A stretch of DNA of 64,000 nt from NCBI GenBank assembly GCA_963764625.1, contig CAVXTH010000007.1, forward strand, positions 1 to 64,000, in the 5' to 3' direction. This DNA is from Candidatus Krumholzibacteriota bacterium (lineage in GTDB: Bacteria > Krumholzibacteriota > Krumholzibacteriia > JAJRXK01). This document shows, piece after piece, positions 634 to 59,261 of the stretch. Position numbers and translations under genes: made by a program. Every line of letters starts with the position of its first letter. Position 1 is the first letter of the stretch. The notes beneath the pieces were generated by a model. The model was given only the letters and a program-made list of their open reading frames with translations, made no database searches and had not been told where the DNA came from.

Positions 634-2652
634 CTACCTATAAGCCGACACGGGGTCGCTCAGACTGCCTTCCTTTCCCCCGCTGCCCACGGCGGAGATC
701 GTATAGACGTAGGTCGTTCCCACGTTCGGCTTGGTGTCCATCCAGGACGCCTCGTCACGCCCTGGCTCGGCAATGAGTTTGGCGGTACCTCCTGGAGCGT
801 GCCGGTAGATGCGATACCCGACCACACGGTCGTCGAGAATGCGGGCCCAGGAGATCTGGATACCCTTCGAAGTCGCCGTGGCACGGACTCCGGAAGGAGA
901 GGGGAGTAGCGACACAGTTTCGGGTACGTGAACAAGAAGGGGTGCGCTGCGCGCACTCCTGACTCCATTGACGTCGACCGCGACCACCGTGTACTCATAG
1001 GCCGCTCCGGCGGTCACGGTGGAATCGGTTCCGTAGTTCTGCTGCGGTGCGTACGACTCGGAGCTGAAGATCATCGCGAACTCCCCGTCGGGCATGTCTC
1101 GCCGGAAGACCGCATACCCCGCCAAAGTTGGTTCGCGTTCCAGGAACACGTCCCAGAACAGCTGCACGCGATCCGCGGCCACGATTGCTCGCAAGTTGAG
1201 AGGGGTGGAAAGCGAATAGTCCGCGGGTGGTCGCGCTGCCACGCTCTCGGAGAGTTCGCTCAGCGCATACCCGTCGCCCACGGCCCGGACCGCATAATTG
1301 TAACTTTCTCTGCTATCCAGAGTCTGCGAAGTGTCCGCGTAGCTCACCAGACCCGAATCGGGCCGAACCAGCGAGGAAATCTGTTGCCAGTCTCGTCCGG
1401 CGGAAGCGCGGTACACGTAATAGCCCAAGAGGTGCGGCCCCACGCCTTGCCACGAAACCCGAATACCCTCTTTGGTGGATTCGGCGCGAACGCGGTGGGG
1501 AGGGAGTGGGACTTCCCCTTTGGTAGCCATCGCCGCCACGACCGCGCTTGTCGCAGTCTCGTCTGCTCCCGAAGTGACGATACGGTAGTAGGAGTTTTCG
1601 TTGGCCGTGGGGACTACGTCGACGAATTCTCGTGTCTCGGGAGTCAGAGAGGCGATCCGCTGAAATGGCCCGTCGAAGCTGTCGCTGCGTTCGATTTCGA
1701 TGGAGCGAAGGTAGGACTCCCCCAAGAGCTTCCACTCCAAATGCACCTGGTGAAGATCCCCCACGGCCAGCGCGTGTAGCTTGGCTACTATGGGTACGCT
1801 TCCCGCGGGGAATGTCGATACGGTTACGGGTTCACTCGGAGCTCCGGGATTCGCGAAGTGATCGACGAACGAAGCGGTGTATTCGTAGACGGAGTTGGGC
1901 ACCACCTGGTCATCACGTGCCACTGCATAGGTCGAATCCCCTGCGGCGCGAAAGCCGGTGATCGACTGAATAGGCGCGAAATCCCCTTTCATCGCGTCAC
2001 GGCGGCGAATGAGAAGCCCGGCAGGCTCGGCATCCGCTGGGAGGAGCCACTGCAGATGCACCCGGGCTCCGTCGAAGTCTCCACCCTTAGATTTGAGCCT
2101 CTCAGGGGCGGGCAAGGAACTGTTCGCCGGCCAGCTCACCGTCTGCGTCTCTTCACCCGTACTGCCACGCTGCGCGCGGTAACGGAACTTCGCGCCACTC
2201 TTCGCGGCAGTCGCACTGGTGTCGAGCAGCGCCGTTCCCAGGGCCAGGTGCGAAAGTGGAATGTTCTGAGCCATGAGCTCGCTGACGTCATCGTGTGACT
2301 GCAGGTACTCCCAGAGACGGTCGATGCCGGCGTCGTCGAGAGGGGCCAGCCCCTCGAAGTAGGGCGTGAAGCGATGGATGCGGCCCGCGAGTTCTTCACG
2401 TGAAGTCGGTGCAGAACTCTGTCCCAGCGCTTCCTGGCCGCCAGTCTCGCGCGAAACCACGTAGGGTTCGCTCTTGGGGATCGAGCTGCCGAGGAACACC
2501 CAGATGCCGCCGGGCGATGCAACGGCCATCGCGTGGGGGCGAGTCTTTCCGTCATTCTGCGCGTACGCACTCACTGCGCCGAGGACGACGATCAGCGTCG
2601 CAACTGTTAGGACGGTCCATCTCCGTTGGGTTGTATTTCGTATCGTCGTCAT
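634..2652 (-). CDS. secreted fibronectin type III repeat protein
   Basis: Signal peptide ending AYA; repeated FN3-like units (LxW...GYxVYR...YxD...YxYxVxAV...S); ATG at 2652 chosen, ORF open to GTG 2661. Confidence 0.85.
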   Translation of the reverse strand: MTTIRNTTQRRWTVLTVATLIVVLGAVSAYAQNDGKTRPHAMAVASPGGIWVFLGSSIPKSEPYVVSRETGGQEALGQSSAPTSREELAGRIHRFTPYFEGLAPLDDAGIDRLWEYLQSHDDVSELMAQNIPLSHLALGTALLDTSATAAKSGAKFRYRAQRGSTGEETQTVSWPANSSLPAPERLKSKGGDFDGARVHLQWLLPADAEPAGLLIRRRDAMKGDFAPIQSITGFRAAGDSTYAVARDDQVVPNSVYEYTASFVDHFANPGAPSEPVTVSTFPAGSVPIVAKLHALAVGDLHQVHLEWKLLGESYLRSIEIERSDSFDGPFQRIASLTPETREFVDVVPTANENSYYRIVTSGADETATSAVVAAMATKGEVPLPPHRVRAESTKEGIRVSWQGVGPHLLGYYVYRASAGRDWQQISSLVRPDSGLVSYADTSQTLDSRESYNYAVRAVGDGYALSELSESVAARPPADYSLSTPLNLRAIVAADRVQLFWDVFLEREPTLAGYAVFRRDMPDGEFAMIFSSESYAPQQNYGTDSTVTAGAAYEYTVVAVDVNGVRSARSAPLLVHVPETVSLLPSPSGVRATATSKGIQISWARILDDRVVGYRIYRHAPGGTAKLIAEPGRDEASWMDTKPNVGTTYVYTISAVGSGGKEGSLSDPVSAYR

Positions 2653-2654
2653 GT

Positions 2655-5600
2655 CTACCACCCTGAGCTCATTCCAGCCTCATTGCCCGAGCAGGTTCCA
2701 ATCCCCAAGGACGCGTTGGAACCGCTCGTGCCCATGGACATGGTCATCTTGAGTGACTTCTGCACGGATAGCCCAGCGCACAGTTCGCAGGAGATTCCAT
2801 CAAGAGAGGGGGTTGGTACGCACTGCTGGAGCTCTCCTGCCAAGGAGATGCTCGCGCAACCTTGGAGATCGAACTGGCCGTTAGTGTTGAGAATGCCTTT
2901 CGCTCCTAGCTCCGCCGCAACTTCCCCGGTGATCTTGGTGCAAGTAATGCTCGACAGGATGAAGTAGGCGTGTACGAAGCCCATGGCTCCGATGCCTAGC
3001 TCGGTTCCTGGTCCATCAAAACTCATCCAGACGCGTGCATCCAATCCAGTTTTACCCCCGAGATGCGCGGACACCGCACCTAGATTGAAGCCGGTGTCGG
3101 GGATGCTGAACTGGGGCAGGTTCTTGCGGCCGGTGAAAAAGAAGCCCGAGATGCCTTGCTGAAACGACACGGGAATGTGCTTGTCGTACGCAAACTGCAG
3201 AAGCGTACTGGCTACCTCGGGCGGCATGGTGTCGTAGTCGCCGATCAGCATTCCCGCTTTCAAGTTACCAAACCCTGACAGGGTGACGGCGCCGCCGGTG
3301 AGGAAATACCATCCGTCCCCATCGACGCACATGTTTGCGATCCCCACGAAGTGCGTCCCCGAGAAAGTGGTGTCGATGTCGAGGGTACCTGTCATTCGCC
3401 CGTGTGGGTAGTCGTAGGTCATGGAGATGTCGCCGAAAGGCGTGGGGATGTTCTTTACGTCGACACCCTGGCCGTCAGCCGTGATGTCACCGTGAACTGT
3501 GAAGGTCTTTCGCGTGTCGCCCTGCATCCCCTTGGCGCCCTGCATGTCCCCGCTAAAGACAAACTTGGTCCAATCTTTCGAGGTGTCAGCCACGTGCATT
3601 TCACCTTCGACCGAGGCGAGCGTGGTCTTCGTCTTCCCGATGGGCAGGGTCTGTCCGAGCGGATCGACCTCGATCCAGATCTTCTTGGTCGTGCGGTGCA
3701 GCTTCGTTTTCAGTTCGACGCCTTCGCTGGACTGGATCTTTCCCTCGGCCAAGAACCCCTCGGGGCCGAGGCTCTGGGAGCCTTCGCTTTGATGGGCGAT
3801 GAACTTCACCTTGCCCGGCGCGTCGAAAGCGAAGGGTATCGGGGTGAGGTCGAGGGCGATCTTCCCCGCGTCCTTGTGGAAAGTCAGGATCGCCTGGTAG
3901 CTCTTCGCCAGTCGAGGGACTCCGAGATCGACCGTTCCTGAGATTTGAAAGTAATCGTCGTAGGCGATGAGATTCCCTGGCACGAGCGTGAAGACGTCGT
4001 AGAAGGTCACCGAGGGAGCGCTGGCGCCAAATCCTAGCAACTGGTCCCCGTTACTCAACAGATCGATGGAACTCAGGGTGAAGGCTGCGTTCTGCTTCAT
4101 GCCGGGAAGTCCGGCGAGCTTAGCCGCCGGTGTTGCACCATCCGGCAGGAGCGAGAGCTTCCAATGTCCCTTCTGATCTTCTCCCACCTTGGGGTCGTAG
4201 CCGAAGCCGGTGTTCTGCGTGAGCACCTGAAGCGGCGCCACCCCGCCCAGCGAAATGTTCTTCAGGTCGACTTGATCGACTTTCAGATTGGTCGGCGTGA
4301 TGTGGAGGCTCTTGGCAGGAACCGTGATCACACCGGTGTTGACGGTAGCCGTATCGAAAAGGATGCCGTTGGTGGAGGCATTGAGCTTCCAACCCGCGGC
4401 CGTCACCTTCCACTTTTCCAGACTGAGGGAGACCGCGCCGGGATTGTCGATCGGCAGCACTCCAGCGGGACGGGCCCGTACCCACCCGGCTGGTACATCG
4501 AGGGAAAGAGGATCCGACGTACCGACCTCAGCGTGAAGCGTGGTGTCGATCGCGAGCGTGTCCTTCCTTACGTAGGCGCCGCCTGCCTGGGCGGAAGCGG
4601 AAAAACCGAAGAGTTTGTAGGTCACGGCGCCACCCTTCGCGCTTCCACGGATCGCGTAGGAGTCTGCGTTTATCTGGCCCGGATTCGAAGCAAACGCGAC
4701 CACCGTCGTCGCGCTCGGGTGGTCCATCGGGGCGAGTTCGAGCGTGCCGGGAGCCATGCTATTGGACGAGAACGAAAAACTCGATGGATCGATGCGTACT
4801 CGGCCTCGAATCTCGCCGCCCCCGTCACCGCGAGGCGCGACCGAGATCATTTCCCCTTGTTTCTCGGGGAGAAGCTCGACATCGAAAGCATCGAAAAGCC
4901 GCAAGTTGAGCTTGGACGCCATGGTTTCCACCGGCGGATTCTGCGGGACGGCGTAGGGAACTCCCTGTCCGTCGAGCTTGGTTCCCTTCTGCAAAGACAC
5001 ATCGTGGAAAGGAAGCGTGAAGTTCGTCTCCTTGGGTTGGAAGCTCGAGTTCACGGGTAGCTTCACGAAGGAGCCGTCGATGGTCACTCCGTCGCCCTTT
5101 TCCGTGAGTGAGTTGATTTCGATCGGAATCCCGAGCAGCTGCGTGATGTCCATGTCGTTGTAGATCGTCAAATTCAAGTTCACCGGCTGATCGGTGGGGA
5201 CGGTGATTGTCTTGGAGTCGCCGACATAGGTGACCGTATTGGAGGATCGCGTGGCATGGATGGTCACTTCCGCAGGGTCCATGGGAATTCCGTGCAGAGT
5301 GTACTTACCCCCATCGGCAGTTGTGGTTTCCACCGGGATGATGTCTGAGCCCGATCCCACCTCGGCAAACACGTGCGCTCCGTCGACCGAGACGGAATCT
5401 CCAACCGTGACTACCCCCGAAATGTGCGCCGCTGGGTCGAGTACACAGCTGTAATCGCTGGCTTGGGTATTCGTCAGGTTGAAGAATTTATAGTAACGCG
5501 CAACGTAGTCGGCGTTTTCGGGCGGCGTGATCTTGGCCTTGAAAACGACACCCTGGTTGTCGAATACGAAGGTCGCAAGCCCGCGCGGATCGGTCTTCTT

Positions 5601-8354
5601 GACCTGACCCAAGAGCTCCACGGTGGCCCCCGCCAGCGGCTTGAGACTGGGCACCATGGTGAGGGTCAGTGAGCTCGTATCGATTCCGCGCAATACGGTA
5701 ATACGGACGCGGTGACGTCTCCGCACGAGCTGGAATTTGCCGAGATTCACCGGTTTGTCGGACTTTTCGATATCTACCGTGAAGGTCTTGGCAGAGTAAT
5801 CGCTGTTGTACGGGGTAACGGTCATTTTCTGGTTCTTTCCCGAGGGCGCGTGCAGGTGGAAAATCTGCGCGCCCAGGAACCAATCCGTTGCGGTGGTGAT
5901 TCCGGCGTCGAAGTGCACCTCAGCCGGAATCCCCGCGCCGGTCTCCAGGTCCGAAACGGTGCCGAAGACTTTTCCGTCGGGTTCGAGCTGCACTTCGGAG
6001 GTCAGATCCTCCTGACGTCCCCAGGCCAGAATCCCCAGGTGCTTGGTCCACGAGGAATACCCTTGTTTGTAGGCCATCAGGGTTCGATCCGGTCCCACCA
6101 AGGCTCCGCTGTCATCTTCTTGCACGTCGAGATCGTTGAAGTGGAAGTAGCCCTGCGAGCCACTCTTGGTCGACAACCAGGGCCATTGCTTCTCGGTGCT
6201 GGTTCCGGAGAAGAACTGAGAGAAAACGTCGGTTATGTTCTCCTTGTACTTGCTCTGGAGCACGAGTTGCGCCTGAGGAATCGGCGTATTGGTGTTGGAC
6301 TTGTCCATGACGCGACCGAAGATCCGTGGATGCGCCGGGCTCAGGAAGGTCTTGGTTTCGAAGGGATCCTTGAGCGAGTGTTGGCTGTTGAAAATGGGGT
6401 GCTGATTGAAGTCGGCGGGATAGGAGTAGTACCCGAGCTCGGGTTTGTAGGTGTAGTTGCCCTTGGTCGTCGAAGTCGAGGCGTAGAAGTAGTACACGTC
6501 GTTGGCGTTCCAGGGACGCACGACCCGGGTGAACTGAGCTACGCCGTTCTCATCGGCCACCGTCTGATCGACCACGTAAAAAGTTCCCTCGGGCAGAATG
6601 ATCTTGTGGTGCGTACTCGGATCACCCTCGTCGGAGGGAATCTCGGAATTTCGCGGGTGTTTGCGGAGCACCATGACCTTTGCGCCGGGGATCTTCCCTA
6701 CGGCGGCCTGATTCTGTTTGAAGATGTCCGGCACTACCGTCAGCCGGAAGCGGTAGGTCTTGACCCACGAAACCATCTTGCCCAGGTCAGTGTTGCCCCA
6801 AGGATGGATCACGATGTCTTTGTCGGGGCTGCAGTAGTACGGACTGTCGACCATCAAGCGCAGAGTACGCGTGACTTTCTTGGCCGAGAGTTCGTCCATG
6901 ATACCGTCTTGGGGATTGTACTTGTTCGCAACGAACACGCTCGCGTTCTGTTCGAACACGCCGGTGTCGAACGACTGCTCAAAGTTAAAGGAAAAGCTCC
7001 CATCGCTCTTCGTGATCGTAGTGGCAATCACCTTGTCGATGTCAGGGAATAGATCGTTCAAATCCGCGGAGGAGTAGCCTTTCTTCACCAGTTGCTTCTT
7101 GGAAAGAACGGTGTTGCTTTCATCCTTTGATCCATACGCTCCCAAATGACCGTCCAGAATGCGATAGGTCACCACGAGGCTGACCCTCACCCCACCCAGA
7201 GGCTCTGAACCCGCGGGGTCGACGAAGCCCGATTCATAGTAGGTATTGTCCGGGTTGAAGGACTGCTTCTCGACCGCACCCGAACTCGCCCCGGAGACCA
7301 ATCCGCCGCTCGTGCTGCTCGTGTTGTCATAGGCCTTGAATTTGTATGCGAGAGTTCCATGGATCGCGCTCCAGGGCGCGTTGGGCAGATTCTTAGGGAC
7401 CTCGGTATTGGCCGTGGGTCCGCTTTGGTTTCCAGTCGGCTTGACGGTGATCGGAAGCAAGAACCCGGAGATCGAATCGCCCCAGGTAAACGAGCACACC
7501 TCACTGTGTCCGCCATTGGCGAAGGGAATGTTGAGTTCGCCGTTTTGAGCCGTCACTCGCCAGGCGTAGTGACGCCCCGGTACGAACAGGGACTGCGTGG
7601 GCCCGTAGAAAAATGACGTACCGATTATGTCCTGGTCAAAGAACTCGGGCGTGGTCGCGCTCGCCATCGCTTCCTCTGGCGCCATGTCGGGATCGACCAT
7701 CTCGACGATTTCGAGCCGGTACGAAGTCGTGGCCGGAGGCGCTCCCGAGGACGGAGTCCACGCGAAGGTGACCGCCTGGAGAGCTTGCGGCGTGATCGTT
7801 TCACCGCAGGGAGGACTCAGCAGATAGGGTGGCTCGGCCGCCTTGATTTCGAACACATTGCTGCAACCCGCCGGGGGTGGAGGCGAATGGACGATCTCGG
7901 TTCTGCAGATGGACTCCGGACAGATCGACTGGAAGCACAGGCGGTAGGTGCCGGGAGGAAGGCCCTTGTCGTAGTACTGAGCCTGGGTCATTCCGGAGAA
8001 CAGCAGATTGGCAGGATCGAAGAGCGCCGTGAGGTCGGCCCCGGTGAGAAGCGTTGTCGTACTGACGGTGATGGGAAAGGGTGGACCCGGGTCGAATCCG
8101 GGCGGTGTCCTGAGTTCGATCCCGTTGTCCCCGAGGAGCTGCATGGTGAGGACGTTTTGAGCCGAACCGTCGAGGTTGGTGGCCATCAGCGTGACCCGTG
8201 TGTGATCGGCGATGGAGAAGAGGTCGTTCGTGACCGTTCCGGCTACCTGCGCCGTGATGGCAAGATCATACTGCGCAGAGGCCGGCGCTGTTCCCAGCAA
8301 TGCCATTGCCCCCATGATGATCGCAGCCACGGTGCTTTTAGAAAGACACCGCAT
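2655..8354 (-). CDS. giant secreted protein with TANFOR-like N-terminus, Ig/carboxypeptidase-regulatory-like repeats and beta-rich C-terminal region
   Basis: 1899-aa ORF, signal peptide ending ASA; LPPGTYRLCF and PPYLLSP..FAWTP..YAWRVTA..NGGHSEVCSF motifs recalled from Bacteroidota TANFOR-domain proteins; repeated G-x-V-x-D/PIPxAxV units. Confidence 0.75.
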   Translation of the reverse strand: MRCLSKSTVAAIIMGAMALLGTAPASAQYDLAITAQVAGTVTNDLFSIADHTRVTLMATNLDGSAQNVLTMQLLGDNGIELRTPPGFDPGPPFPITVSTTTLLTGADLTALFDPANLLFSGMTQAQYYDKGLPPGTYRLCFQSICPESICRTEIVHSPPPPAGCSNVFEIKAAEPPYLLSPPCGETITPQALQAVTFAWTPSSGAPPATTSYRLEIVEMVDPDMAPEEAMASATTPEFFDQDIIGTSFFYGPTQSLFVPGRHYAWRVTAQNGELNIPFANGGHSEVCSFTWGDSISGFLLPITVKPTGNQSGPTANTEVPKNLPNAPWSAIHGTLAYKFKAYDNTSSTSGGLVSGASSGAVEKQSFNPDNTYYESGFVDPAGSEPLGGVRVSLVVTYRILDGHLGAYGSKDESNTVLSKKQLVKKGYSSADLNDLFPDIDKVIATTITKSDGSFSFNFEQSFDTGVFEQNASVFVANKYNPQDGIMDELSAKKVTRTLRLMVDSPYYCSPDKDIVIHPWGNTDLGKMVSWVKTYRFRLTVVPDIFKQNQAAVGKIPGAKVMVLRKHPRNSEIPSDEGDPSTHHKIILPEGTFYVVDQTVADENGVAQFTRVVRPWNANDVYYFYASTSTTKGNYTYKPELGYYSYPADFNQHPIFNSQHSLKDPFETKTFLSPAHPRIFGRVMDKSNTNTPIPQAQLVLQSKYKENITDVFSQFFSGTSTEKQWPWLSTKSGSQGYFHFNDLDVQEDDSGALVGPDRTLMAYKQGYSSWTKHLGILAWGRQEDLTSEVQLEPDGKVFGTVSDLETGAGIPAEVHFDAGITTATDWFLGAQIFHLHAPSGKNQKMTVTPYNSDYSAKTFTVDIEKSDKPVNLGKFQLVRRRHRVRITVLRGIDTSSLTLTMVPSLKPLAGATVELLGQVKKTDPRGLATFVFDNQGVVFKAKITPPENADYVARYYKFFNLTNTQASDYSCVLDPAAHISGVVTVGDSVSVDGAHVFAEVGSGSDIIPVETTTADGGKYTLHGIPMDPAEVTIHATRSSNTVTYVGDSKTITVPTDQPVNLNLTIYNDMDITQLLGIPIEINSLTEKGDGVTIDGSFVKLPVNSSFQPKETNFTLPFHDVSLQKGTKLDGQGVPYAVPQNPPVETMASKLNLRLFDAFDVELLPEKQGEMISVAPRGDGGGEIRGRVRIDPSSFSFSSNSMAPGTLELAPMDHPSATTVVAFASNPGQINADSYAIRGSAKGGAVTYKLFGFSASAQAGGAYVRKDTLAIDTTLHAEVGTSDPLSLDVPAGWVRARPAGVLPIDNPGAVSLSLEKWKVTAAGWKLNASTNGILFDTATVNTGVITVPAKSLHITPTNLKVDQVDLKNISLGGVAPLQVLTQNTGFGYDPKVGEDQKGHWKLSLLPDGATPAAKLAGLPGMKQNAAFTLSSIDLLSNGDQLLGFGASAPSVTFYDVFTLVPGNLIAYDDYFQISGTVDLGVPRLAKSYQAILTFHKDAGKIALDLTPIPFAFDAPGKVKFIAHQSEGSQSLGPEGFLAEGKIQSSEGVELKTKLHRTTKKIWIEVDPLGQTLPIGKTKTTLASVEGEMHVADTSKDWTKFVFSGDMQGAKGMQGDTRKTFTVHGDITADGQGVDVKNIPTPFGDISMTYDYPHGRMTGTLDIDTTFSGTHFVGIANMCVDGDGWYFLTGGAVTLSGFGNLKAGMLIGDYDTMPPEVASTLLQFAYDKHIPVSFQQGISGFFFTGRKNLPQFSIPDTGFNLGAVSAHLGGKTGLDARVWMSFDGPGTELGIGAMGFVHAYFILSSITCTKITGEVAAELGAKGILNTNGQFDLQGCASISLAGELQQCVPTPSLDGISCELCAGLSVQKSLKMTMSMGTSGSNASLGIGTCSGNEAGMSSGW

Positions 8355-10086
8355 ACGAAACCTCCCCTCGTGTCTCCGTATAGGACGTCGCCCCCGCGGA
8401 CTTGGCGTTGTTGTCGTGTACGTAAAAACGTGCCGTCACCTGCTGGCGTCTTCCCTCTCTGAGCGAGGCAGTGAGCTGAAACGTGTTCGTGTCGTTCGTA
8501 TCGATTCCGTCGACGGAAGTCGTGCTCATCGTCAACGATGCACCCAAGGTGAGCTTATGCCGCAACAGTCCCACATTCGCTCCCACCAGCGGTCCCGCGA
8601 CTTTCGTTTTGCTCGTGGAAAGGTCGAAAACAGAGCGATTGAAGCCCGTGGTGAGGCTCACGTTCCAGGGGATCCAGGTGAATACATAGGCGGCGTTGAG
8701 TTGCGACGAAGTGTAACTCTGATCGACGATGCCACTCTCGGTCTTGTCCTGCATGTCCTGGAGTGACCAAACCAGCGAGAGGTTGTGAGCGGCGTGCTCA
8801 CGCACCAACGAGAGAGTCTGCGTCAAACCGATGTTGTTGGTGGCCTGCGCAATCTTGGTGGAAGTGCTGTCGATCTGGCTCTTGCTCGGTTTCTGATCGA
8901 TCGAGTAGTTCGAATAGGACAGGCCCGCCGTATACTGCGGCAGTGGCGTCCAGTCGAGCCGAGTGGAACCGATGACACGGTTGGTCTGGAGAGTCTTGTC
9001 GTCGCCGAGGTTGTCCTTCTGGAAGCCGAGACTCGCGGTGCCCCGGAGCTTGCGCTTCAGCGCGATCACGGTCGGTTCGATCGTGATCTTCTGGAGGTCG
9101 TTGTTGAAGTAGTAGGCCCCCATCGAACGGTACTTGGGGTCGATGCGTTCGAACCGGAGTTTCACCCCGCCCCATTGATCTTTCCAGTGCAGGGTTCCGT
9201 CGATTGCATTCGATTCCTGTGTGGTTCGACGATGGTCCATCAGAAAGCCAAAGGCCTTGAGCAACACTCCCTGGTAGTCACCCTCTAGAGGGCCTTCCGA
9301 GTTATCGGTGTATGCGCTCTGGGCCCATTCGAAGCTCAGCGTCAAGCGGGGTGCGAGAGCCGCCTTTGTCACCAGCCCCACCGCGAGATTTTCTTCCGGC
9401 AATGCCGTCGCCCCCGACGCCGTGATGTTCAAGGAGCTTGCGTCGTCCTTGCCGTGGACGACTACCAGGGAGGCATTGCGCTTCTCGTCACTTGCCCCGA
9501 TCCGTAGTGCGTAACCGTTGCGCTTGTAGACCGGCTGAATCAAACCGGTGACGGCAGTGCTATCGGGTTCGATGGCGCGGCGCAAACGCCCGGCAATGAA
9601 GCCGACCTGAAGTGGACCTGGCGAGAGCTCGACGCCTCCTCCCAGAATGCTGTGACCGGCCAGCGTGAAGCGTGACCAGGAGAGGCTGCGGTAGCCCACG
9701 TGAAAGGTGGCCCAGCGATAGTAGGGGCTCGCGCCGAAACGATTGAGCGGCTGCCGAAAGTCACGGCTCTGTTCGGTGAGCGTGAAACTGAAGGGCACGG
9801 TCATTCCGTAGAGTTGGAGAGTTGGGTTGCCGCGGAGGACCCAGCTATTCGGTTCTCGGCTTGCCGCCCTTCCGTCCACTCCATAGGAAGCGAGTCCGGC
9901 CGAGATGGTACCGTGGATCTTCACCTGCCCGGCGTTACCCAGAGTTTCGAGGTTTTGGGCTTTCAGTGGGGCTGCGATCAGGCAGAGGATCCCTGAAATT
10001 GCAACGGCGAGAGTTCGCAACGCGCAAGTCCTGTGGATGGAAGCAAAGACAGGACGAGAGGATGAAAGGATTCGATAAGAACTCAT
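8338..10086 (-). CDS. putative outer-membrane beta-barrel protein
   Basis: 582 aa, signal peptide, many amphipathic beta-strand-like segments, C-terminal GEVSYAVSF ending in Phe (BAM-type signature). Confidence 0.75.
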   Translation of the reverse strand: MSSYRILSSSRPVFASIHRTCALRTLAVAISGILCLIAAPLKAQNLETLGNAGQVKIHGTISAGLASYGVDGRAASREPNSWVLRGNPTLQLYGMTVPFSFTLTEQSRDFRQPLNRFGASPYYRWATFHVGYRSLSWSRFTLAGHSILGGGVELSPGPLQVGFIAGRLRRAIEPDSTAVTGLIQPVYKRNGYALRIGASDEKRNASLVVVHGKDDASSLNITASGATALPEENLAVGLVTKAALAPRLTLSFEWAQSAYTDNSEGPLEGDYQGVLLKAFGFLMDHRRTTQESNAIDGTLHWKDQWGGVKLRFERIDPKYRSMGAYYFNNDLQKITIEPTVIALKRKLRGTASLGFQKDNLGDDKTLQTNRVIGSTRLDWTPLPQYTAGLSYSNYSIDQKPSKSQIDSTSTKIAQATNNIGLTQTLSLVREHAAHNLSLVWSLQDMQDKTESGIVDQSYTSSQLNAAYVFTWIPWNVSLTTGFNRSVFDLSTSKTKVAGPLVGANVGLLRHKLTLGASLTMSTTSVDGIDTNDTNTFQLTASLREGRRQQVTARFYVHDNNAKSAGATSYTETRGEVSYAVSF

Positions 10087-11054: not shown

Positions 11055-11124
11055 GAAAGCGGTGAGTACGCCTTTAGGTCCCAACTCGATGAGCTTCTTC
11101 GAGCTCATCAGAGAGGTGGAGAGA

Positions 11125-11793
11125 ATGACGAGACCCGTGAAATTCCTCGTTTTGTTCATGGTTCTCTTGACTGCAGGAGTGTCCCAGTCGGCAGAACTCA
11201 CGCTGTACCCCGTGCTCACCGGACACGACGAGCGCGAAGATGGGGTTACCGGTTGTCTGCACGAGACGGCGTTCAGGGCTGGTGTCGCGACGGCCGATCT
11301 GCATCTGAAGGTGGGGGGAGAGTCTGCAGGGTGCGATGCGGAATGGGCGGCGAGCTTCGAATTCGATTTGAGCACGGCGCCCCCGACCGAGCAGATCTAC
11401 AGCGCGACCCTAGTGGTCCGCAAGACCGGCTACTCGGACGATTCGCAGGGCTTTGCCTATCTCGGGGCATTCCAGTACCTGGCCACCGGCTCGGAAGTGC
11501 TGGTACCGCGCGACGATCTCGATCCCCAGACGGCCTTGGATATCGTGTATCCCTCGGCCGCCAACGGCGACTTGTCGTTCGACGTCACTCCGGCCATCCA
11601 GGCCTTTCTTGCCAACCAGGCGGCTCGGGCGGGATTGCTGCTCGCGGGCGTGTATTCCGAGGCCGGCTACGAGGACTGGATTTCGGTCGGAGGCCAGGGC
11701 TACCCCTTGCCTCCACGGCTCATCGTGGAATACCAGGGCACGGTGGATGCCCCGACGACGAGCTGGTCGTCTCTGAAGGCCAGCTTCGACTAG
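11125..11793 (+). CDS. secreted beta-sandwich-type protein with C-terminal SWxxLK tail
   Basis: ATG 11125 after gaggtgga; signal peptide; FEFDLS..IYSATL..FDVT..PRLIVEY pattern resembling DNRLRE/CBM96-like domains; ends VDAPTTSWSSLKASFD. Confidence 0.75.
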   Translation: MTRPVKFLVLFMVLLTAGVSQSAELTLYPVLTGHDEREDGVTGCLHETAFRAGVATADLHLKVGGESAGCDAEWAASFEFDLSTAPPTEQIYSATLVVRKTGYSDDSQGFAYLGAFQYLATGSEVLVPRDDLDPQTALDIVYPSAANGDLSFDVTPAIQAFLANQAARAGLLLAGVYSEAGYEDWISVGGQGYPLPPRLIVEYQGTVDAPTTSWSSLKASFD

Positions 11794-12058: not shown

Positions 12059-12646
12059 ATGCCTCGCCATTCAGGGCTCGTGCGTCGTGAGGATGGGCCC
12101 ACGCGCCCGACGCGGACCATTGTGGTTCTCTTGCTTTCGCTGGCGCCCTTGCTGAGTGCCGCGATCGGGCCGGGCTTCGACCACAGCTGGTTCACCGTCG
12201 ACACAGGAGGTGGCCGGAGCGTTGGCGGGGGATATGCCCTCTCGGCCACCGCGGGACAACCCGATGCGGGAGAGATGTCTAGCAGGGGATATTCGTTGCG
12301 GGGAGGGTTCTGGGGTGGAGGGGCGATCGCCACCGCGGTTGCCGATCCGCCACCAAACCGCACGGTCTTCCACGATCGCCTCTATCCCAATCATCCGAAT
12401 CCCTTCAATCCTGCAACGACCGTCACCTTCGAATTGGCAGCCGAAAATACAGTGCACCTGCGGATCTTCAATCTCCATGGGGAGCGTGTGAGGGTGCTGC
12501 TGAACGAACTCCGACCCGCGGGACAACAGACGGTTCGCTGGAACGGTCGCGACGACCGAGATCGAACCGTCGCCAGCGGCGTGTATTTCCTCGTTCTGGA
12601 TGCCGGTGAGTTCCATGCCCGGCAGAAACTCTCACTCGTCCGTTGA
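12059..12646 (+). CDS. small secreted protein with FlgD-Ig/T9SS-like C-terminal domain
   Basis: Hydrophobic leader; Gly-rich WFTVDTGGG..GQPDAG..LRGGFW module; NHPNPFNPATT..LRIFN..WNGRD..VASGVYF CTD. Confidence 0.85.
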   Translation: MPRHSGLVRREDGPTRPTRTIVVLLLSLAPLLSAAIGPGFDHSWFTVDTGGGRSVGGGYALSATAGQPDAGEMSSRGYSLRGGFWGGGAIATAVADPPPNRTVFHDRLYPNHPNPFNPATTVTFELAAENTVHLRIFNLHGERVRVLLNELRPAGQQTVRWNGRDDRDRTVASGVYFLVLDAGEFHARQKLSLVR

Positions 12647-12681
12647 GTTCTAGGCGCTCCGTAAAGGAAAGGAAAGATCCC

Positions 12682-14073
12682 ATGCGCGCTCAAATCCTGA
12701 ACCGGTGTCTCGGAGCGTTGCTGCTCCCCTTGGTGCTGGTCTTGCCAGCCAACGCCCAGCAGCCCTTGACTTCCGCGTTCACCTACCAAGGACAGTTGGA
12801 ACTCAATTCGGGAGCAGTCGATGGGGCGACGGACATGCGTTTCACTCTGTGGGACGCGGAGACCGCGGGGAACGGAGTTGGGACGAGTGTCAACTACGAT
12901 GGAATCTCCAATCCACCGGTCCAGGTGACGGCGGGCAATTTCGAAGTGCTCCTGGATTTCGGCGTCGACAGTTTCGACGGCAACCGCCGATGGCTGGAAG
13001 TGGCGGTACGGTTTCCCGCCGGGAGCGGCGGTTTTACCACTCTGAGTCCTCGCCAGGAACTGACGGCAGCTCCGTACGCAATGCAAACTCGAGGTCTTTT
13101 CGTCGACGCAAACAACCACGTGGGGATTGGCACCCTCACCCCTCTTTGGCCCCTGGACATCATGGCGAACCAGGGAGTGGTTCGTCTGACCACGCGTACC
13201 AGCCCGAATGGATCGGTCCTCGAGCTGAAGAACATAGGAACGACTCCCTCGTATCTTGGGGCGATCAACTTCAACGACGACGCCCAAACCTATCCGGGAC
13301 AGATCTCCTACGATGTGGGCCAGAGCGATCACTTGCTGAAATTCCGGGTACAGGGGTCCACGCCGGCCTGGTACACGCGGTGGGGACTCAACCTTGCCGG
13401 CACCGGTCAGTTTCGCGAGAACGCGGCTCTGCGGTCGGTCAACACAAACTCGAGCGCGGGGATGGCAGCCTACTTCGAGAACAACAGCACCTGGGCCACG
13501 GCACACTTTCAAAACAGTGGCTCGGGGGAGATTCTCTGGCTCCAACACGAGGGTACCGGCAATTACATCGTCGCCACCGATGGAACGGATTGGAAATTCT
13601 GGGTCGACAATGTGGGGACAACGCACACGAAAGTCCTGCAGATCCTTGGCGGCGCGGATCTCTCGGAACAATTCGATGTCTCGTCACCCGATCAGGAGTT
13701 GCTGCCGGGCATGACGGTGTGCATCGATCCCAATCGGGAAGGACGGCTTCTGCTGAGCCGCCACTCCTACGATCATCGTGTGGCGGGTATCGTGAGCGGC
13801 GCGGGCGGAGTGAAACCGGGCATGCTGATGGCCCAGGAGGGGAGCATTGCCGACGGGGGTCACCCGGTGGCTCTGACGGGCCGGGTTTACTGCTGGGTCG
13901 ACGCTACATACGGTCCCATCGCACCGGGCGATCTGCTCACGACCTCGGACACTCCGGGCCATGCTATGAAAGCCAGTGATCACGTCCGCGCGCAGGGGGC
14001 GATTCTGGGCAAGGCCATGGGCCATCTCGAGACGGGCAGAGGGCTCGTTCTCGTGCTAGTGGGATTGCAGTGA
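12682..14073 (+). CDS. secreted fibre/tail-fibre-like protein (AFTYQGQL N-domain, intramolecular-chaperone-like C-domain)
   Basis: ATG 12682 after aggaaagg; signal peptide ending ANA; SAFTYQGQL..LSPRQELTAAPYA, VGIGT unit, C-terminal GGADLSEQF..PVALTGRV..GDLLTTS..GHAMKA..GKAM. Confidence 0.75.
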   Translation: MRAQILNRCLGALLLPLVLVLPANAQQPLTSAFTYQGQLELNSGAVDGATDMRFTLWDAETAGNGVGTSVNYDGISNPPVQVTAGNFEVLLDFGVDSFDGNRRWLEVAVRFPAGSGGFTTLSPRQELTAAPYAMQTRGLFVDANNHVGIGTLTPLWPLDIMANQGVVRLTTRTSPNGSVLELKNIGTTPSYLGAINFNDDAQTYPGQISYDVGQSDHLLKFRVQGSTPAWYTRWGLNLAGTGQFRENAALRSVNTNSSAGMAAYFENNSTWATAHFQNSGSGEILWLQHEGTGNYIVATDGTDWKFWVDNVGTTHTKVLQILGGADLSEQFDVSSPDQELLPGMTVCIDPNREGRLLLSRHSYDHRVAGIVSGAGGVKPGMLMAQEGSIADGGHPVALTGRVYCWVDATYGPIAPGDLLTTSDTPGHAMKASDHVRAQGAILGKAMGHLETGRGLVLVLVGLQ

Positions 14074-16761
14074 GGCCTTTTTCACTCGCAGTGCGTCGAG
14101 GGTTTGCATTGCGGCGTGAGCCTGGCGGAGCAGGGGATGATCGGGAGTCAGCCGCGCTTCCAGACCCTCCAGAGCGGATCGCAGTAGGAGCTCAGCCGCG
14201 TTGAGGTCACCGCGACGCAGGGCGCAGCGGCCGAGATCGAGCTGGATTTCGGCCAGAGCCAGCTTCTCCTCCGGCGCATGCTCCAGAAAGATGGCCTGCG
14301 ACTTCTGCAGGAGAGACTCGGCCTCTGCCACTTTGCCTTCCGCCAATGCAAGAGCACCCAAGCCACGATAGCTGAAGGCAAGGCTCGGATCGTCCTCGCC
14401 CAGAACTCGGCGCCGCAGCTCGAGCACCTCTTCGTAACGCGCCCGCGCCTCTTTCAGCTTTCCCGCACGCTCCAGGAGCACTGCCACGTTATTCAGGACC
14501 GTCAGGGTGGAGGGGTTCTCGGCACCACTCGTTGCACGAAATACTTCGAGCGCTTGCGACATCCATTCGGCGGCCTCGGCGTAGTTTCCCAGCGAGTACT
14601 CCAGGGTCCCCAGGGCGTTGAGGGTGCGCCCCAATTCATAGCTCGGGTTCACGCTGACGGCGTGATGAATCGCAACCGCCTGTCGTAGGTAGTCTCCCGC
14701 CTCTTCTAGCCTTCCTTGTTGGCGGTAGAGAAGAGCGAGGCTGGTCAAGGCGGCCGCCGTGTCAGGATGGCCCTTGGGGTAGAGTTCGCGGCGGATCGAG
14801 AGGCAGCGGAGATAGAGCGACTCGGCCTCGGCGTCGCTTCCCATGGCGGTGAGGACGGCAGCGCGGTTGTGCAGGCTGGTGGCGACATCCGGATGGAGAT
14901 TCCCGAGGCGCTTCACCCTGATGTCCAGGGCGAGCTTGTGCAGGGAGTCCGCCGCGGCATACTGGTCGGTTTTCCCCAAGTTCACGGCGAGATTGTTGAG
15001 GTCAGTGGCAACCTCGGGATCGTCCGGACCCAGCCGCTGGCGATCGAGCTGCAGCACTCGCTTGTGCAGTTCTATGGCCTTCTCCAAGTCACCTTGACCG
15101 GAGTAGGCTACCGCGAGATTGCCCAGGACCGTGCTGGTTTCTTCCGAGTGATCGCGTCCATGCCGGTCCTGGATCGCCAGTGCTTCATTGAGAATCTCCA
15201 GCGCTTGCTCGTAGAGACCCCTTTGCTCGAGCGCACTTCCTAGCTCGGTCAGCACCTTTACGGTTTCGACCGATTCCGGTCCGAAGCCCTGCTCGCTTTC
15301 GTCCCGCGCCTGGGTCAAGAGACTCTCCGCAAGGTCGAAACGTCCCAGCTTCACGTTGAGGTCGCCCAAAAGCAAAAGAAGCTCGGAACGCAACCGGGGT
15401 TGGTCGTGGAGGTGGCTCTGGAGTTTCTTGGCACCCGCATCGAGAACCTCCTCGGTGGTCACCTTCTGACCCAGTCCCACCGCTTGGCTCGATTCACTGA
15501 AAATCTCAACCAAGAATTCCTTCACCTGGTTGGCTCGTGCGGCTTGTCGTGAGGCGATACGAGCCTGCCAAACTGTCGTCAGGAGTCCCCCGAGCAGCGC
15601 GAGCAGGAGCAATCCAGCACTGATGGTTCCCGTCCGATGGCGGCGAAGGAAACGATTGGTCTTATAGCGAGCGGTGGCCGGTCGGGCATGGATGGGAAGC
15701 ATCTGACGGTATCGTTGCAGGTCCTCCGCCAGTGCTTCCGCCGAGCGGTACCTGTGCTCGGGCTCTTTGCGCAGGGCCTTTTCTACGATGGTGCCAAGAT
15801 CTGAGGGAAGAGAGGAGGGTAAAGAGGGCAGATCGGCCGAGAGAATCGCGTCTTCCCACTCGCGTTCGGTCGTTGCCATCGCCGCGAAGGGTGGCTCACC
15901 AGAGAGTAGTTCGTAGAGAACCGTTCCCAAGGCGTACACGTCGCTCGAAGTGGTAACCGGTTCGCCACGGATCTGTTCGGGTGAGGCGTAGCGCGGGGTC
16001 AACAGCCGTGCCACCGTCTGTGTCCGGTCGACCGCCTCCGCTTCTTCCGCCAGGAGTTTGGCGATACCGAAATCCACCAGCTTCACCTGACCGGCGGTGG
16101 ATACGAGGATGTTCGATGGTTTCAGATCGCGGTGCACCACCAGGCGGGAATGCGCATGAGCAACCGCCTGGCAGACATCGATGAAGAGATCGATTCGCTC
16201 GGGCACCCCGAGTTTCAAATTGGCGCACCAATGAGTGATCGACTCTCCGTCGATGTACTCCATTGCGAACCACGGAACGCCCTTTTCGGTCGTTCCACCG
16301 TCGAGCAGGCGCGCGATGTTGGGGTGCTCGAGGGGTGCGAGAATGCGCCGCTCTTGCTCGAAGCGTCGAGCCAGCTTGCCCTCTGGATCGGGTCGGTCAA
16401 GAACCTTCAGTGCTACCCGCTGCTCGAAATCTCCCTCGACTCTCTCCGCCAGAAACACGACCCCCATTCCTCCCCGGCCTATTGTGCGAAGCACCTTCCA
16501 GGGTCCGAAACGCTGGCTCGCAGCTTCTCCCTGAGCCAGGGTTTCGATGAAGTCGTGCGCCCACTGTGCCGGGGGCTTTCCGAAAGGGTCTTGGCCGCTG
16601 CGGTCGGCCCTCAACAGGCGTTCCACCTCGGCAGCGATGAAGGGACTTTCCGAGCGGAGTTGGGCCAGACGCGCTTCGCACTCGGTCTCTTCTAGCTCGA
16701 GGAATTCATCGAGAAGCGCGGTGATCCGTTTCCAGAGTTCGGGATCGGAGCGCTTACTCAT
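14056..16761 (-). CDS. membrane Ser/Thr protein kinase with extracytoplasmic TPR repeats
   Basis: IGRGGMGVV, VALK, HRDLKPSN, DFG, YASPEQ, DVYALG; TM helix; multiple TPR_12-like repeats (LNNLA, HPDVA). Confidence 0.95.
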   Translation of the reverse strand: MSKRSDPELWKRITALLDEFLELEETECEARLAQLRSESPFIAAEVERLLRADRSGQDPFGKPPAQWAHDFIETLAQGEAASQRFGPWKVLRTIGRGGMGVVFLAERVEGDFEQRVALKVLDRPDPEGKLARRFEQERRILAPLEHPNIARLLDGGTTEKGVPWFAMEYIDGESITHWCANLKLGVPERIDLFIDVCQAVAHAHSRLVVHRDLKPSNILVSTAGQVKLVDFGIAKLLAEEAEAVDRTQTVARLLTPRYASPEQIRGEPVTTSSDVYALGTVLYELLSGEPPFAAMATTEREWEDAILSADLPSLPSSLPSDLGTIVEKALRKEPEHRYRSAEALAEDLQRYRQMLPIHARPATARYKTNRFLRRHRTGTISAGLLLLALLGGLLTTVWQARIASRQAARANQVKEFLVEIFSESSQAVGLGQKVTTEEVLDAGAKKLQSHLHDQPRLRSELLLLLGDLNVKLGRFDLAESLLTQARDESEQGFGPESVETVKVLTELGSALEQRGLYEQALEILNEALAIQDRHGRDHSEETSTVLGNLAVAYSGQGDLEKAIELHKRVLQLDRQRLGPDDPEVATDLNNLAVNLGKTDQYAAADSLHKLALDIRVKRLGNLHPDVATSLHNRAAVLTAMGSDAEAESLYLRCLSIRRELYPKGHPDTAAALTSLALLYRQQGRLEEAGDYLRQAVAIHHAVSVNPSYELGRTLNALGTLEYSLGNYAEAAEWMSQALEVFRATSGAENPSTLTVLNNVAVLLERAGKLKEARARYEEVLELRRRVLGEDDPSLAFSYRGLGALALAEGKVAEAESLLQKSQAIFLEHAPEEKLALAEIQLDLGRCALRRGDLNAAELLLRSALEGLEARLTPDHPLLRQAHAAMQTLDALRVKKASLQSH

Positions 16762-17350
16762 GGCCGGAATCCGTTTCTGTGGCCTTCTCCTCCAACTCCG
16801 CTACCAGGAATGCGCGTGCCTTCCGCCAGTCACGCAAGATCGTACGCTGCGTCCGGGACTTCAGCTTGGCCACTTCTTCCACGCTGAGGCCGCCGAAGTA
16901 TCGCAACTCAACGACCTCGGCCAGACGGGGATCGACGGCGGCGAGGCGATCCAGTGCCTCGTCCAGATCGAGAAATGCCGCCACATCCTGTTCGACGGTG
17001 GCGGCTTCGGACTGCATTAGATCGAAGGAGATGAACTTCCCTTCGCCTCCGCGCTTGTCCGCCCGCCGACGTCGCGCGTGGTCGCGGAGTAGCTGCCTCA
17101 TGGCGAGGCATGCCACGCTGAAGAAGTGTTCACGGTCATTGAGTGAGGGAGTTTGCTGACCGAAAACCTTGATGTAGGCCTCGTGCACCAAGGCAGTGGT
17201 GTCGAGAGTCCGTCCGCCCCTCGGAGAGAGCTGCCGACGGGCGATGATCCGCAGTTCCTCGTAGACCTCAGGCAGGAGCAGCTCCAGGGCGCCTGGGTCG
17301 CCGTCCCGAGCAAGCCGGAGCAGACGAGTGATTTCGCCCTGATCCGCCAT
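16754..17350 (-). CDS. ECF sigma factor, TIGR02999/ECF43 type
   Basis: EITRLL..YEELRIIARR..TLDTTALVHEAY..DHARRRRADKRGG..VVELRYFGGLS..DWRKARAFL; start reassigned to ATG 17350; overlaps kinase start. Confidence 0.93.
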   Translation of the reverse strand: MADQGEITRLLRLARDGDPGALELLLPEVYEELRIIARRQLSPRGGRTLDTTALVHEAYIKVFGQQTPSLNDREHFFSVACLAMRQLLRDHARRRRADKRGGEGKFISFDLMQSEAATVEQDVAAFLDLDEALDRLAAVDPRLAEVVELRYFGGLSVEEVAKLKSRTQRTILRDWRKARAFLVAELEEKATETDSGHE

Positions 17351-17524
17351 CCTTCCGCCGTTCCTTGCGTTCAGCTCACTCCCAACTTCGAGCCGTGTCC
17401 GCTCGGGCCGCCCTACGACCCTAAAGTCACGGTCCATGATGGAGTTGATCATAGCCGAACGGATCGCGCCGGGATAGCGGCAAGGATCTGACGGGCCAGG
17501 ACGCATCCGAGGGGAAGAAACGAA

Positions 17525-35882: not shown

Positions 35883-37214
35883 ATGAATTCCCTGTTTCAC
35901 CAGCGGCAGATTCGGCGCTTTGTCGAACTGCTGGTCCTTACCCTCTGCCTTCCCTGCGTTTTCACCAGCTCATCCCGCGCCGCGGTTTCTCCTGATCAAG
36001 CGGAGCACTTGATCATCTGTCCCGCGGCCTTCGTGCCCCAATTCGAGGTCTTGGCGAATCACCGCACTTTCGTGGCCGACTTGCCCAGCTGTGTGGTGAC
36101 TCTCGAAGATGTCCTGACTAGCGCGCCCGCTGGACGCGATGACGCCGAGACTCTCCGCAACTACCTGATCCAGCAGTATGCACTGGGCCATCTTCGCTAC
36201 GTTCTCTTGGGCGGCGATAGTGGTGTCATGCCGGTGCGCTTTGCGAGGAGCGCCTTCAATCCCTATGGAGGTTATACGGACTTAGAAACGGACCTTTATT
36301 TCGCTTGCCTGGACGGCGATTGGGACGCTGATGGCGATTCTATTTTCGGCGAAGGATATACTACCTACGATGATCCGGGCGACGACGTGGACCTGAGTCC
36401 AGAACTCGCCGTGGGCCGTGCACCCGTCAACTCCATTGCTCAGGCAGAGCGCTTTGTTCAGGGCGTTATTTCGTATGACACCCTGAATCCTGCCCCTCAT
36501 CTCGCATCGGCTGCGATGCTCGCGGAGGTCCTCTTCCCGAGCGATTGGGACGGTACAGAATCGATCAATCTCGATGGAGCAACCTATGCGGAGGACTACG
36601 TGATGGCCTTGGCCACCCATCCCTCTGCACCCATGATCACGCGGATCTACGAAAATTGGAGTGATTATCCTGGATCACAGCCACTGACAACGGCCGCGGC
36701 GCTCTCTACCCTCGACTCGGGAACCTTTGGTCTTCTGTGCTTCTTGGGGGAGGGTAGTCTCACCAGTCTTCCCGCCGGCAATGGCACGTTCTCCATCACT
36801 CAAATCGATGCTTTGACAAACGCACCGCGCTTTTACTTCGCCATCTCTGCGTCAAACAACTCCGCTTCCTTCTTCGACGATTGTGCCTTAGAACATCTGA
36901 TTCTCGCTGCGGACGGTGGATGTGCTGGGGCAATTGGGTTTACCGAACTGGTGCTCGGTACTGAATTCTCCCAGTACACCAAGGAGTTTCTCCAGCAGGT
37001 TGCTGCAGGTACCGGAATTCTCGTGGGAGATGCCATGCGCTCAGTCCTGCAGCACCATGCCCCCAGCTTGCCCTATGAAACTCTCTGGCGGTGGAACAAC
37101 TTGACTTGGTGCCTTTTAGGAGACCCCGCCACTCCCTTTCGGACGGAGTTGTTGCCGATCCCTGCGAAGGCGACGAGTCTGGGCGGTTTGAAGGCGCGGT
37201 TCAGGCGGCGCTAG
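35883..37214 (+). CDS. peptidase C25 (gingipain) family protein, catalytic residues apparently substituted
   Basis: Signal peptide; YVLLGGD, TDLYFACLDGDWDADGD, ELAVGRAP, GGCAG, LLGDP; the expected His/Cys positions read GEG and ASNN. Confidence 0.85.
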   Translation: MNSLFHQRQIRRFVELLVLTLCLPCVFTSSSRAAVSPDQAEHLIICPAAFVPQFEVLANHRTFVADLPSCVVTLEDVLTSAPAGRDDAETLRNYLIQQYALGHLRYVLLGGDSGVMPVRFARSAFNPYGGYTDLETDLYFACLDGDWDADGDSIFGEGYTTYDDPGDDVDLSPELAVGRAPVNSIAQAERFVQGVISYDTLNPAPHLASAAMLAEVLFPSDWDGTESINLDGATYAEDYVMALATHPSAPMITRIYENWSDYPGSQPLTTAAALSTLDSGTFGLLCFLGEGSLTSLPAGNGTFSITQIDALTNAPRFYFAISASNNSASFFDDCALEHLILAADGGCAGAIGFTELVLGTEFSQYTKEFLQQVAAGTGILVGDAMRSVLQHHAPSLPYETLWRWNNLTWCLLGDPATPFRTELLPIPAKATSLGGLKARFRRR

Positions 37215-59215: not shown

Positions 59216-59261
59216 GGAATCCTCCTCGATTGGGTTCAGGGTCCAAAGGAAAGTAAGACCG

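Follow-up and report, generated by a model that had tools for sequence, protein, structure and literature searches.

Giant proteins headed by a TANFOR domain have been described as polymorphic toxins, with export through type IX secretion (the T9SS) proposed for them (Jana, Salomon and Bosis 2020, PMC7073777); in the parts of that article and its review history covered here, a reviewer raised the question of how such toxins leave the cell, TANFOR proteins having no T9SS tail, and the words 'barrel', 'porin' and 'translocon' each occur zero times in the main text. We analysed a window of 64,000 nucleotides (the whole stretch of DNA under study: GCA_963764625.1, contig CAVXTH010000007.1, positions 1 to 64,000) from a Candidatus Krumholzibacteriota bacterium, in which a TANFOR giant is encoded between the genes for a predicted outer-membrane beta-barrel and for a protein of multiple FN3 domains. 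Across relatives of this locus, the constant pair is the barrel and the TANFOR/FN3-like module at the head of the giant, not the three-gene set. It is in this pairing, which fails defining tests of the known systems, that the novelty would lie, the TANFOR passengers being known already; the first-pass annotation had called similar gene sets uncharacterised, a statement that the description of TANFOR proteins as polymorphic toxins partly contradicts. We found no description of the barrel in the literature searched, which took in few subscription journals, and nothing on these genes in the part of PMC4175972 covered. The barrel is a concrete candidate answer to the reviewer's question. The features of the locus are as follows.

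8338-10086, minus strand: barrel gene, open reading frame (ORF) of 582 aa; predicted outer-membrane beta-barrel of about 26 strands (AlphaFold2), no plug and no periplasmic domain; Sec-type signal ends at about residue 43
2655-8354, minus strand: giant TANFOR gene, ORF of 1899 aa; 16 Cys, no CxxCH
7470-8273, minus strand: TANFOR domain (about residues 28-170) and FN3-like domain (about 171-290) of the giant; the part constantly paired with the barrel, on which it is predicted to dock
5175-7469, minus strand: middle region of the giant, of varying length among relatives; carboxypeptidase-regulatory-like (Ig-like) domain at residues 978-1063
2658-5174, minus strand: all-beta C-terminal region of the giant (residues 1061-1899); amphipathic strands, then long strands and paired cysteines
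634-2661, minus strand: multi-FN3 gene, ORF of 675 aa from a GTG (mechanical start)
634-2652, minus strand: multi-FN3 protein; signal peptide, without TANFOR module and without T9SS tail

Comparison with described systems

The window giant resembles the TANFOR polymorphic toxins in its N-terminal TANFOR domain after a Sec signal, its size, its FN3 neighbour and its want of a T9SS tail. Those toxins have a variable toxin C-terminus and an immunity gene, whereas the C-terminus of the window giant is toxin-free and conserved (52 of the 59 loci whose downstream sequence reaches at least 9 kb); the nearest relatives of the window system are Krumholzibacteriota, outside Bacteroidota. A relative from Emticicia, unlike the window giant, does have both toxin and immunity gene. 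In gene order the cassette recalls two-partner secretion (TpsAB, CdiAB), in which a barrel gene precedes one for a giant Sec protein rich in beta structure; the N-terminal module of that protein is conserved, and its C-terminus, which varies and is toxic in some cases, goes with an immunity gene. TpsB, an Omp85 protein, has a 16-stranded barrel after two POTRA domains, whereas in the window barrel POTRA domains are missing and the strands number about 26, and no two-partner secretion or haemagglutinin domain was detected in the cassette. TonB-dependent receptors have 22 strands and an N-terminal plug in the same chain; the window barrel, again with about 26, has no plug and no match to that family. 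The T9SS (SprA, PorP/SprF) occurs in the same phyla as the cassette, and genes for its cargo flank the toxin-type loci described below; SprA exceeds 2,100 aa and is closed by separate partner proteins, whereas the barrel has 582 aa, and its passengers lack the type A and B tails of T9SS cargo.

Ushers (FimD, PapC; Z 14.0-14.5) resemble the barrel in having a large pore, through which Ig-like domains could pass singly, and they possess an internal plug and periplasmic domains. The window barrel has no plug or terminal domains and about 26 strands against the 24 of ushers (PMC7198977, in the part covered), and neither pilin nor chaperone genes were detected here. LptD matches the strand count of 26, but its N-terminal beta-jellyroll is missing from the barrel. 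Closest in architecture is MtrAB of Shewanella (6r2q): the part of PMC7198977 covered describes MtrB as a 26-stranded barrel with short first strands that holds a separate protein in its lumen through 'stalled' excretion, and the window barrel is likewise predicted to have 26 strands, short N-terminal ones and a separately encoded protein in its lumen. The haem partner MtrA enters from the periplasm, whereas here an FN3-like domain is predicted at the outer mouth. The earlier claim that the system is distinct from the named secretion types stands in part: a defining test fails for each of two-partner secretion, MtrAB, ushers, LptD, TonB receptors and T9SS cargo, but T9SS cargo genes are present at the toxin loci.

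A barrel and a module that occur together

The reading frames bear out the first-pass description of three packed minus-strand genes. The ATG of the giant lies in the Tyr-Ala codons of the barrel's C-terminal YAVSF, giving an overlap of 17 nt, and an ATG at 2652, 2 nt past the giant's stop, offers an alternative start for the FN3 gene (672 aa). The 17-nt overlap is seen again in many relatives, a conservation that is partly forced because the start sits in the barrel's terminal Tyr-codon motif. A TTG at 10017 may be the true barrel start, since the closest relatives measure 560 aa. The signal peptides attributed to all three proteins agree with a hydropathy heuristic, by which each has a single N-terminal hydrophobic stretch with an A-x-A site and no further transmembrane-like segment. 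Pfam, NCBIfam and motif scans likewise uphold the absence from the trio of a FlgD/T9SS-type C-terminal domain and of the SWG tail found on other proteins of the window; neither the giant nor the FN3 protein matches TIGR04183, Por_Secre_tail or CHU_C, whereas the product of 12059-12646 does match. The barrel ends in Phe, as had been noted, and so do 65 of 68 aligned barrels. A promoter and terminator scan of the locus gave no signal exceeding shuffled sequences.

Relatives were collected by scanning GTDB genomes with one motif (356 candidates, 345 confirmed), and because a single motif was used the set leans to close relatives; neighbourhoods were counted in the best 80 of the 345 loci (by record title, Bacteroidota 74, Krumholzibacteriota 3, Latescibacterota 1, Omnitrophota 1), numbered with the prefix L below. 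Behind the barrel lies a module gene in 79 of the 80 loci, starting no more than 300 nt from the barrel end in 76, and at the single module-less locus the contig stops 137 nt past the barrel. The module profile was derived from these 80 loci themselves; the window's module alone recovers 77. Of the 59 loci for which 9 kb or more of downstream sequence is available, the module is present in 59, the FN3 gene in 57 and a C-terminal region of the window type in 52, and full-length relatives of the window giant follow the barrel in most loci. The proposal of a conserved barrel, TANFOR and FN3 gene set survives for the barrel and module, which are nearly invariantly linked, but not for the FN3 gene, which some loci lack: in the sequence available it is missing at L044 and L062 (both also without the all-beta region), at L070 and from the displayed part of the Emticicia locus. 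The barrels of L044, L062 and L070 nest among those of all-beta giants, with the module kept and everything behind it exchanged; at L044, one barrel has three module genes behind it. The third protein of the window matches the FN3 family (E 1.4e-11), and because its gene tracks beta-rich giants more than the barrel, it is probably a helper or second subunit of the all-beta giants.

Several of these loci have further distinctive neighbours. Behind the short module proteins at L044:14593-21170 and L062:13261-15522 are a W-P-x-x-H repeat protein and secreted proteins of 750-780 aa, the latter bearing a motif that resembles a His/Asp metal-binding one. Single genomes are seen to contain two barrel cassettes that are divergent and whose giants belong to different classes (L037 and L076; P0057 and P0058). 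Culturable carriers of the cassette include Pedobacter frigoris, Flavobacterium terrae, Runella sp. SP2 and Emticicia oligotrophica. Near the barrel in 20 of the 80 loci lie sensor-like genes and a response regulator family, LytTR-like on sequence reading (for example L034:8960-9757 and L040:5179-5943), which may control the cassette. A lipoprotein with collagen-like Gly-x-x repeats is encoded directly upstream of the barrel in 13 loci, mostly of Pedobacter and Mucilaginibacter (for example L045:8155-9960). Rikenella labels on several loci from metagenome-assembled genomes and the Omnitrophica label on L072 could not be checked and were for that reason not used to nominate T9SS-free hosts; the L072 barrel is 62% identical to a Lentimicrobium barrel.

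Structure predictions for the barrel and the giant

Folded with AlphaFold2 from an alignment of 116 sequences, the 582-aa protein is confidently predicted to be a barrel (pLDDT 90, pTM 0.82), as the first-pass annotation had supposed, with a strand number unlike that of porins or TonB receptors. A manual count on the DSSP string of the model gives 26 strands, covering residues 60-581, the first beginning 16 residues past the signal site, and no domain is inserted between them or added at either end; short turns (12, of 2-4 aa) and loops (13, of 2-28 aa) take turns along the chain, as is usual for outer-membrane barrels, and loops 2, 3 and 7 (the last with a SMGAYYF motif) are conserved. The closest fold is MtrB (6r2q_B: Z 20.3, root-mean-square deviation (rmsd) 5.4, 450 residues aligned, 12% identity), ahead of porins (Z at most 16.5), ushers (14.0-14.5) and SprA (14.2), and Foldseek gives TMq 0.20-0.26 against LptD chains. 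The window barrel has no Pfam or NCBIfam match, and the 68 aligned barrels have only scattered weak matches, none to Omp85/POTRA, usher or TonB receptor families; together with the model, this agrees with the earlier statement that no POTRA, TonB-plug or usher feature is present. A barrel profile searched against PDB sequences gave a best E of 0.99. In the ESM Atlas the barrel matches unnamed or DUF5723-named Bacteroidota clusters with no shared Pfam family, the nearest named family being DUF6029 (0.93).

The barrel family, for which Pfam and NCBIfam have no model, is large, with 3,581 representatives in a profile search at E<=0.001 and 1,834 clusters at E<=1e-30 (50% identity, fragments included). 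The nearest relatives of the window barrel come from Krumholzibacteriota (83% and 81% identity) and Latescibacterota (50%), and together these form one branch (support 100) amid Bacteroidota sequences; because the root of the tree is uncertain, we infer no direction of transfer.

The module of the window giant itself matches TIGR02542 weakly (22.6-24.9 bits against a cut-off of 67), while E values of 0.01 or lower, the best being 9e-20, are reached by 66 of the 68 aligned modules; the FN3-like label of its second half derives from the sequence pattern and from weak matches to titin and the G-CSF receptor (E 0.1-0.3), and the module profile reached a best E of 0.1 against PDB sequences. TANFOR domains occur in tandem in 19 ORFs, in up to 7 copies, the last of which is followed by the FN3-like domain. 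The middle region of the giant is probably a string of small beta domains. Residues 1061-1899 are modelled by AlphaFold2 as a long all-beta structure (pLDDT 85, pTM 0.63) for which no good structural match was found: Foldseek TMq does not exceed 0.14, and the best VIA match (Z 10.6) covers 142 residues of a barrel wall. In profile comparison with PDB sequences, the C-terminal region gave a best E of 0.086; in the ESM Atlas it stayed below 0.9, DUF6603 (0.81, 23% of members) being a lead only, and other giant classes resemble it weakly. No recognised toxin domain was found in the window giant by Pfam or NCBIfam, and the gene downstream is the FN3 gene, not an immunity gene.

The barrel (residues 50-582) and the module (28-295) were modelled together with ESMFold2 in three runs, alongside three controls. 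The first-pass annotation had suggested a complex prediction with the giant, and the result favours binding with the pose unsettled: the complex scores 0.66 (runs 0.86, 0.65 and 0.66) against 0.00 for the best control, with a partner pLDDT of at least 77, relative to a mark that 116 of 157 solved pairs and 2 of 215 mismatched pairs reach and that is a rough guide here, where our own alignments were supplied. In the best run, 95 barrel residues make contact, 42 in outer loops and 53 in strands (48 of them lumen-facing and polar), and none in periplasmic turns; the FN3-like half supplies 55 of the 69 module contacts, 18 of the 26 strands are touched, and the tightest pairs involve the invariant Q112 and Y325. 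The FN3-like domain is thereby predicted, in that run, to cork the outer mouth of the barrel. A natural fusion, P0244, joins TANFOR, FN3, FN3, linker and barrel in one chain (module E 2.5e-21). An apparent barrel-giant fusion at L029 was rejected because the span includes a run of N, a scaffold gap. Coevolution between the two proteins, by mutual information with average product correction (68 and 39 paired rows), showed nothing clearly beyond shuffled pairings, and was uninformative because the intra-barrel control was weak as well. Taken with the linkage, these models make it quite probable that barrel and module bind each other, whatever the route of export.

Toxin-type loci and the published TANFOR tables

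More distant neighbourhoods are represented by 4 plasmid records, found by tblastn over 72,556 plasmid records without the bias of the GTDB motif. Either of two barrel queries retrieved the same 4, as did two distant module queries; the window's own module retrieved 2 of them. The Emticicia plasmid encodes, in order, a SprB-repeat protein, the barrel, and a module protein ending in a WHH nuclease (E 5.5e-11) followed by an SMI1/KNR4 gene; that of Runella has barrel, giant, FN3, a PKD protein and T9SS cargo; and in the fragmented Bergeyella record a barrel and an FN3 gene occur alongside several module genes and genes labelled as deaminases. Because these loci pair the barrel with such genes, the barrel accompanies toxin-type TANFOR proteins too, and the cargo behind the module is exchangeable: an all-beta giant, a short cargo, or a WHH nuclease with its immunity gene. 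In the fourth record, that of Persicobacter, the barrel is separated from the TANFOR genes by the gene for a beta-rich protein without the module and by the FN3 gene. That module-less protein (L082:21736-26424, 1,560 aa) is homologous to the body of the L076 and L042 giants and has the size of unannotated genes upstream of Chryseobacterium TANFOR toxins (rows SN60-62, 65 and 178 in the part of the PMC7073777 tables used); TANFOR toxin loci may be extended versions of the barrel cassette.

In supplement 1 of PMC7073777, where relatives of the giant are called SPI, a non-random choice of 148 of the 339 table rows was used. An unannotated gene of 528-593 aa lies directly upstream in 80 of these rows, its identity as a barrel being judged by size alone; of the 80, 68 are consecutive and without a listed toxin domain and 6 have a toxin either within the TANFOR gene or beside it, and the F. 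terrae row is the sole one matched by coordinates to a barrel (L075). In the toxin-bearing rows SN254, 255, 258, 273, 275 and 276 the upstream genes measure 549-593 aa. Three parts of the supplement, comprising 54 rows, contain no row with such an upstream gene. The Tannerella forsythia row combines an upstream gene in this size range with the same 17-nt overlap, and the T. forsythia giant was found in vesicle proteomics, according to the part of PMC10682907 covered. T. forsythia rows SN185-195 list varied small nuclease-like genes between a four-TANFOR giant and a gene of about 665 aa.

A proposed export-and-anchor pore and its alternatives

The barrel-module pairing is well supported and the family is widespread; for the barrel, we hypothesise from the models a role as a dedicated export-and-anchor pore for TANFOR proteins, with a probability of roughly 0.45. 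That this amounts to a T9SS-independent two-component secretion route of Bacteroidota and related phyla, in which a 26-stranded MtrB-like barrel exports and anchors module-headed proteins, is marginally less probable again. All three proteins would pass the inner membrane via Sec, as their signal peptides imply, and the barrel would be inserted as an empty 26-stranded pore. The N-terminal module of the giant, linked to the barrel in the genomes, is predicted to recognise it; the giant would then leave one domain at a time through the pore, the driving force probably being, as in two-partner secretion, the folding of its beta-rich body on the outside. The FN3-like domain would remain in the outer mouth like a cork, as in the best-scoring pose, where it would close the pore and keep the protein attached at the surface. 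The part behind the module can be exchanged: in the window it is an all-beta rod free of toxin domains, perhaps aided by the FN3 protein, and elsewhere a short cargo or antibacterial nucleases.

A number of observations weigh against this proposal. The three complex runs differ in pose (contact agreement at least 0%), and because they share none, the outward corking reflects one run. Conservation at the barrel interface is 0.54 against 0.52 elsewhere (p 0.28); module best pairs also give p 0.28, and with the module interface (p 0.019) and barrel best pairs (p 0.017), two of four tests are positive at uncorrected p. Neither POTRA nor any other periplasmic domain for catching substrates is present in the barrel, and it is linked to no source of energy. 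P0244 is a lone fusion sequence of unchecked origin, and among 7,999 candidates of 1,020-2,910 aa there were 0 further barrel fusions, which is weak evidence. The Persicobacter barrel is directly followed by the module-less protein, with the module three genes downstream; 68 of the 148 PMC7073777 rows used have no unannotated barrel-sized gene directly upstream; SprB-repeat or T9SS-tail proteins are encoded at all 4 plasmid loci; and, according to PMC7073777, a T9SS is present in more than 95% of TANFOR genomes.

The last two points favour the chief alternative, which we rate less probable than export through the barrel, that the barrel is an anchor only: TANFOR proteins would leave through the T9SS, by a non-standard signal or a tailed partner, and be captured by the barrel on the surface. 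PorP/SprF-type barrels hold T9SS cargo, a gene labelled PorP/OmpA-like from sequence reading lies ahead of the Persicobacter barrel, the window itself encodes T9SS-type tailed proteins, and the outer-side docking of the best pose suits capture as well as export. A mere anchor would seem to have no need of an empty 26-stranded pore, though, and the giants have no T9SS tail; no T9SS-cargo-like family recurs beside the 80 loci, as judged on sequence starts without Pfam; and the module of the P0244 fusion, tied to strand 1, must traverse its own barrel to dock outside. In the tables of PMC7073777, as far as covered, SprA is scored 0 for two genomes of Sphingobacterium in which a gene of barrel size occurs together with a TANFOR giant and an FN3 gene. 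The first-pass idea of a dedicated translocon or anchor accordingly gains a predicted direct binding to the giant, but passage through the barrel is hypothetical and the anchor-only alternative stays, because the toxin-type loci carry T9SS cargo genes too. Even an anchor would constitute a new tether for giant proteins at the outer membrane and a non-respiratory use of an MtrB-type fold.

The long series of amphipathic strands in the giant's C-terminal region, and the variation in pose among the complex runs, would also suit a periplasmic bridge, with the giant inside the cell, plugging the barrel from the periplasm while its beta groove carries lipids or cargo as in TamAB or LptAD. LptD, likewise 26-stranded (PMC7198977, in the part covered), tops the Foldseek rows for this region, and VIA places TamA barrels among its highest-ranked matches. 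These fold matches are poor (TMq at most 0.14 with rmsd above 40; Z at most 10.6, to half-barrels), and TamB/AsmA and LptA are absent among the fold matches listed, an absence that does not exclude a fold of that kind. By hydropathy the N-terminus resembles a cleavable A-x-A signal, with no inner-membrane anchor helix; no inner-membrane transporter gene recurs beside the cassette; the best pose makes no periplasmic-turn contacts; and a WHH nuclease with an immunity gene on the same module is sensible only outside the producer. We regard such a bridge as improbable. Still less probable is an uptake device, SusCD-like in logic without TonB, in which the giant is an external binder or lid and the barrel imports captured material: the best pose does dock the partner on the outer side, and the LytTR-type regulator (label from sequence) lies near the barrel in 20 of 80 loci, but the barrel model has no plug domain, no catabolic genes recur beside it, and the same module carries toxin cargo. 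Fold similarity taken by itself would point to an electron conduit like MtrAB, MtrB being clearly the best match (Z 20.3, next 16.5); identity to MtrB is 12%, multihaem-like ORFs number 1 in 809 among the neighbours, and CxxCH occurs in none of the 83 module-bearing ORFs and in none of the 3 window proteins. The missing haem motifs largely refute this reading and leave it a negligible chance.

Other genes of the window

Further features outside the cassette are as follows.

12059-12646 and 38666-39511, plus strand: proteins with FlgD-Ig/T9SS type A-like C-terminal domains; TIGR04183 above cut-off for the first
11062-11793 (plus), 35883-37214 (plus) and 58628-59377 (minus): tail [ST][WL][GS]x[LIV]K[AS]x[FY] at the C-terminal end, 3 of 400 window ORFs

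The two proteins with type A-like tails suggest a T9SS-like pathway in a non-Bacteroidota host. The motif tail, which within the window ORFs occurs nowhere but at the C-terminus, is also present in L001 and L003, and its bearers include a Peptidase_C25 protein and a DNRLRE-like protein; it may be a sorting signal of Krumholzibacteriota and Latescibacterota. Overlapping the preceding FlgD-tailed gene, 12643-14073 (plus) encodes a signal-bearing protein of 476 aa with no Pfam match and a weak match (E 0.096) to a model for the N-terminal part of an adhesive fibre of Bdellovibrio. An AcrB-family gene is split over 55459-56763 (plus) and 56669-58597 (plus), which cover profile positions 3-398 and 398-1020, by a frameshift or sequence error. 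At 14056-17506 (minus) an extracytoplasmic function (ECF) sigma factor (TIGR02999) is paired with a Ser/Thr kinase-TPR protein, and 41399-44530 (plus) encodes a CHAT-domain protein.

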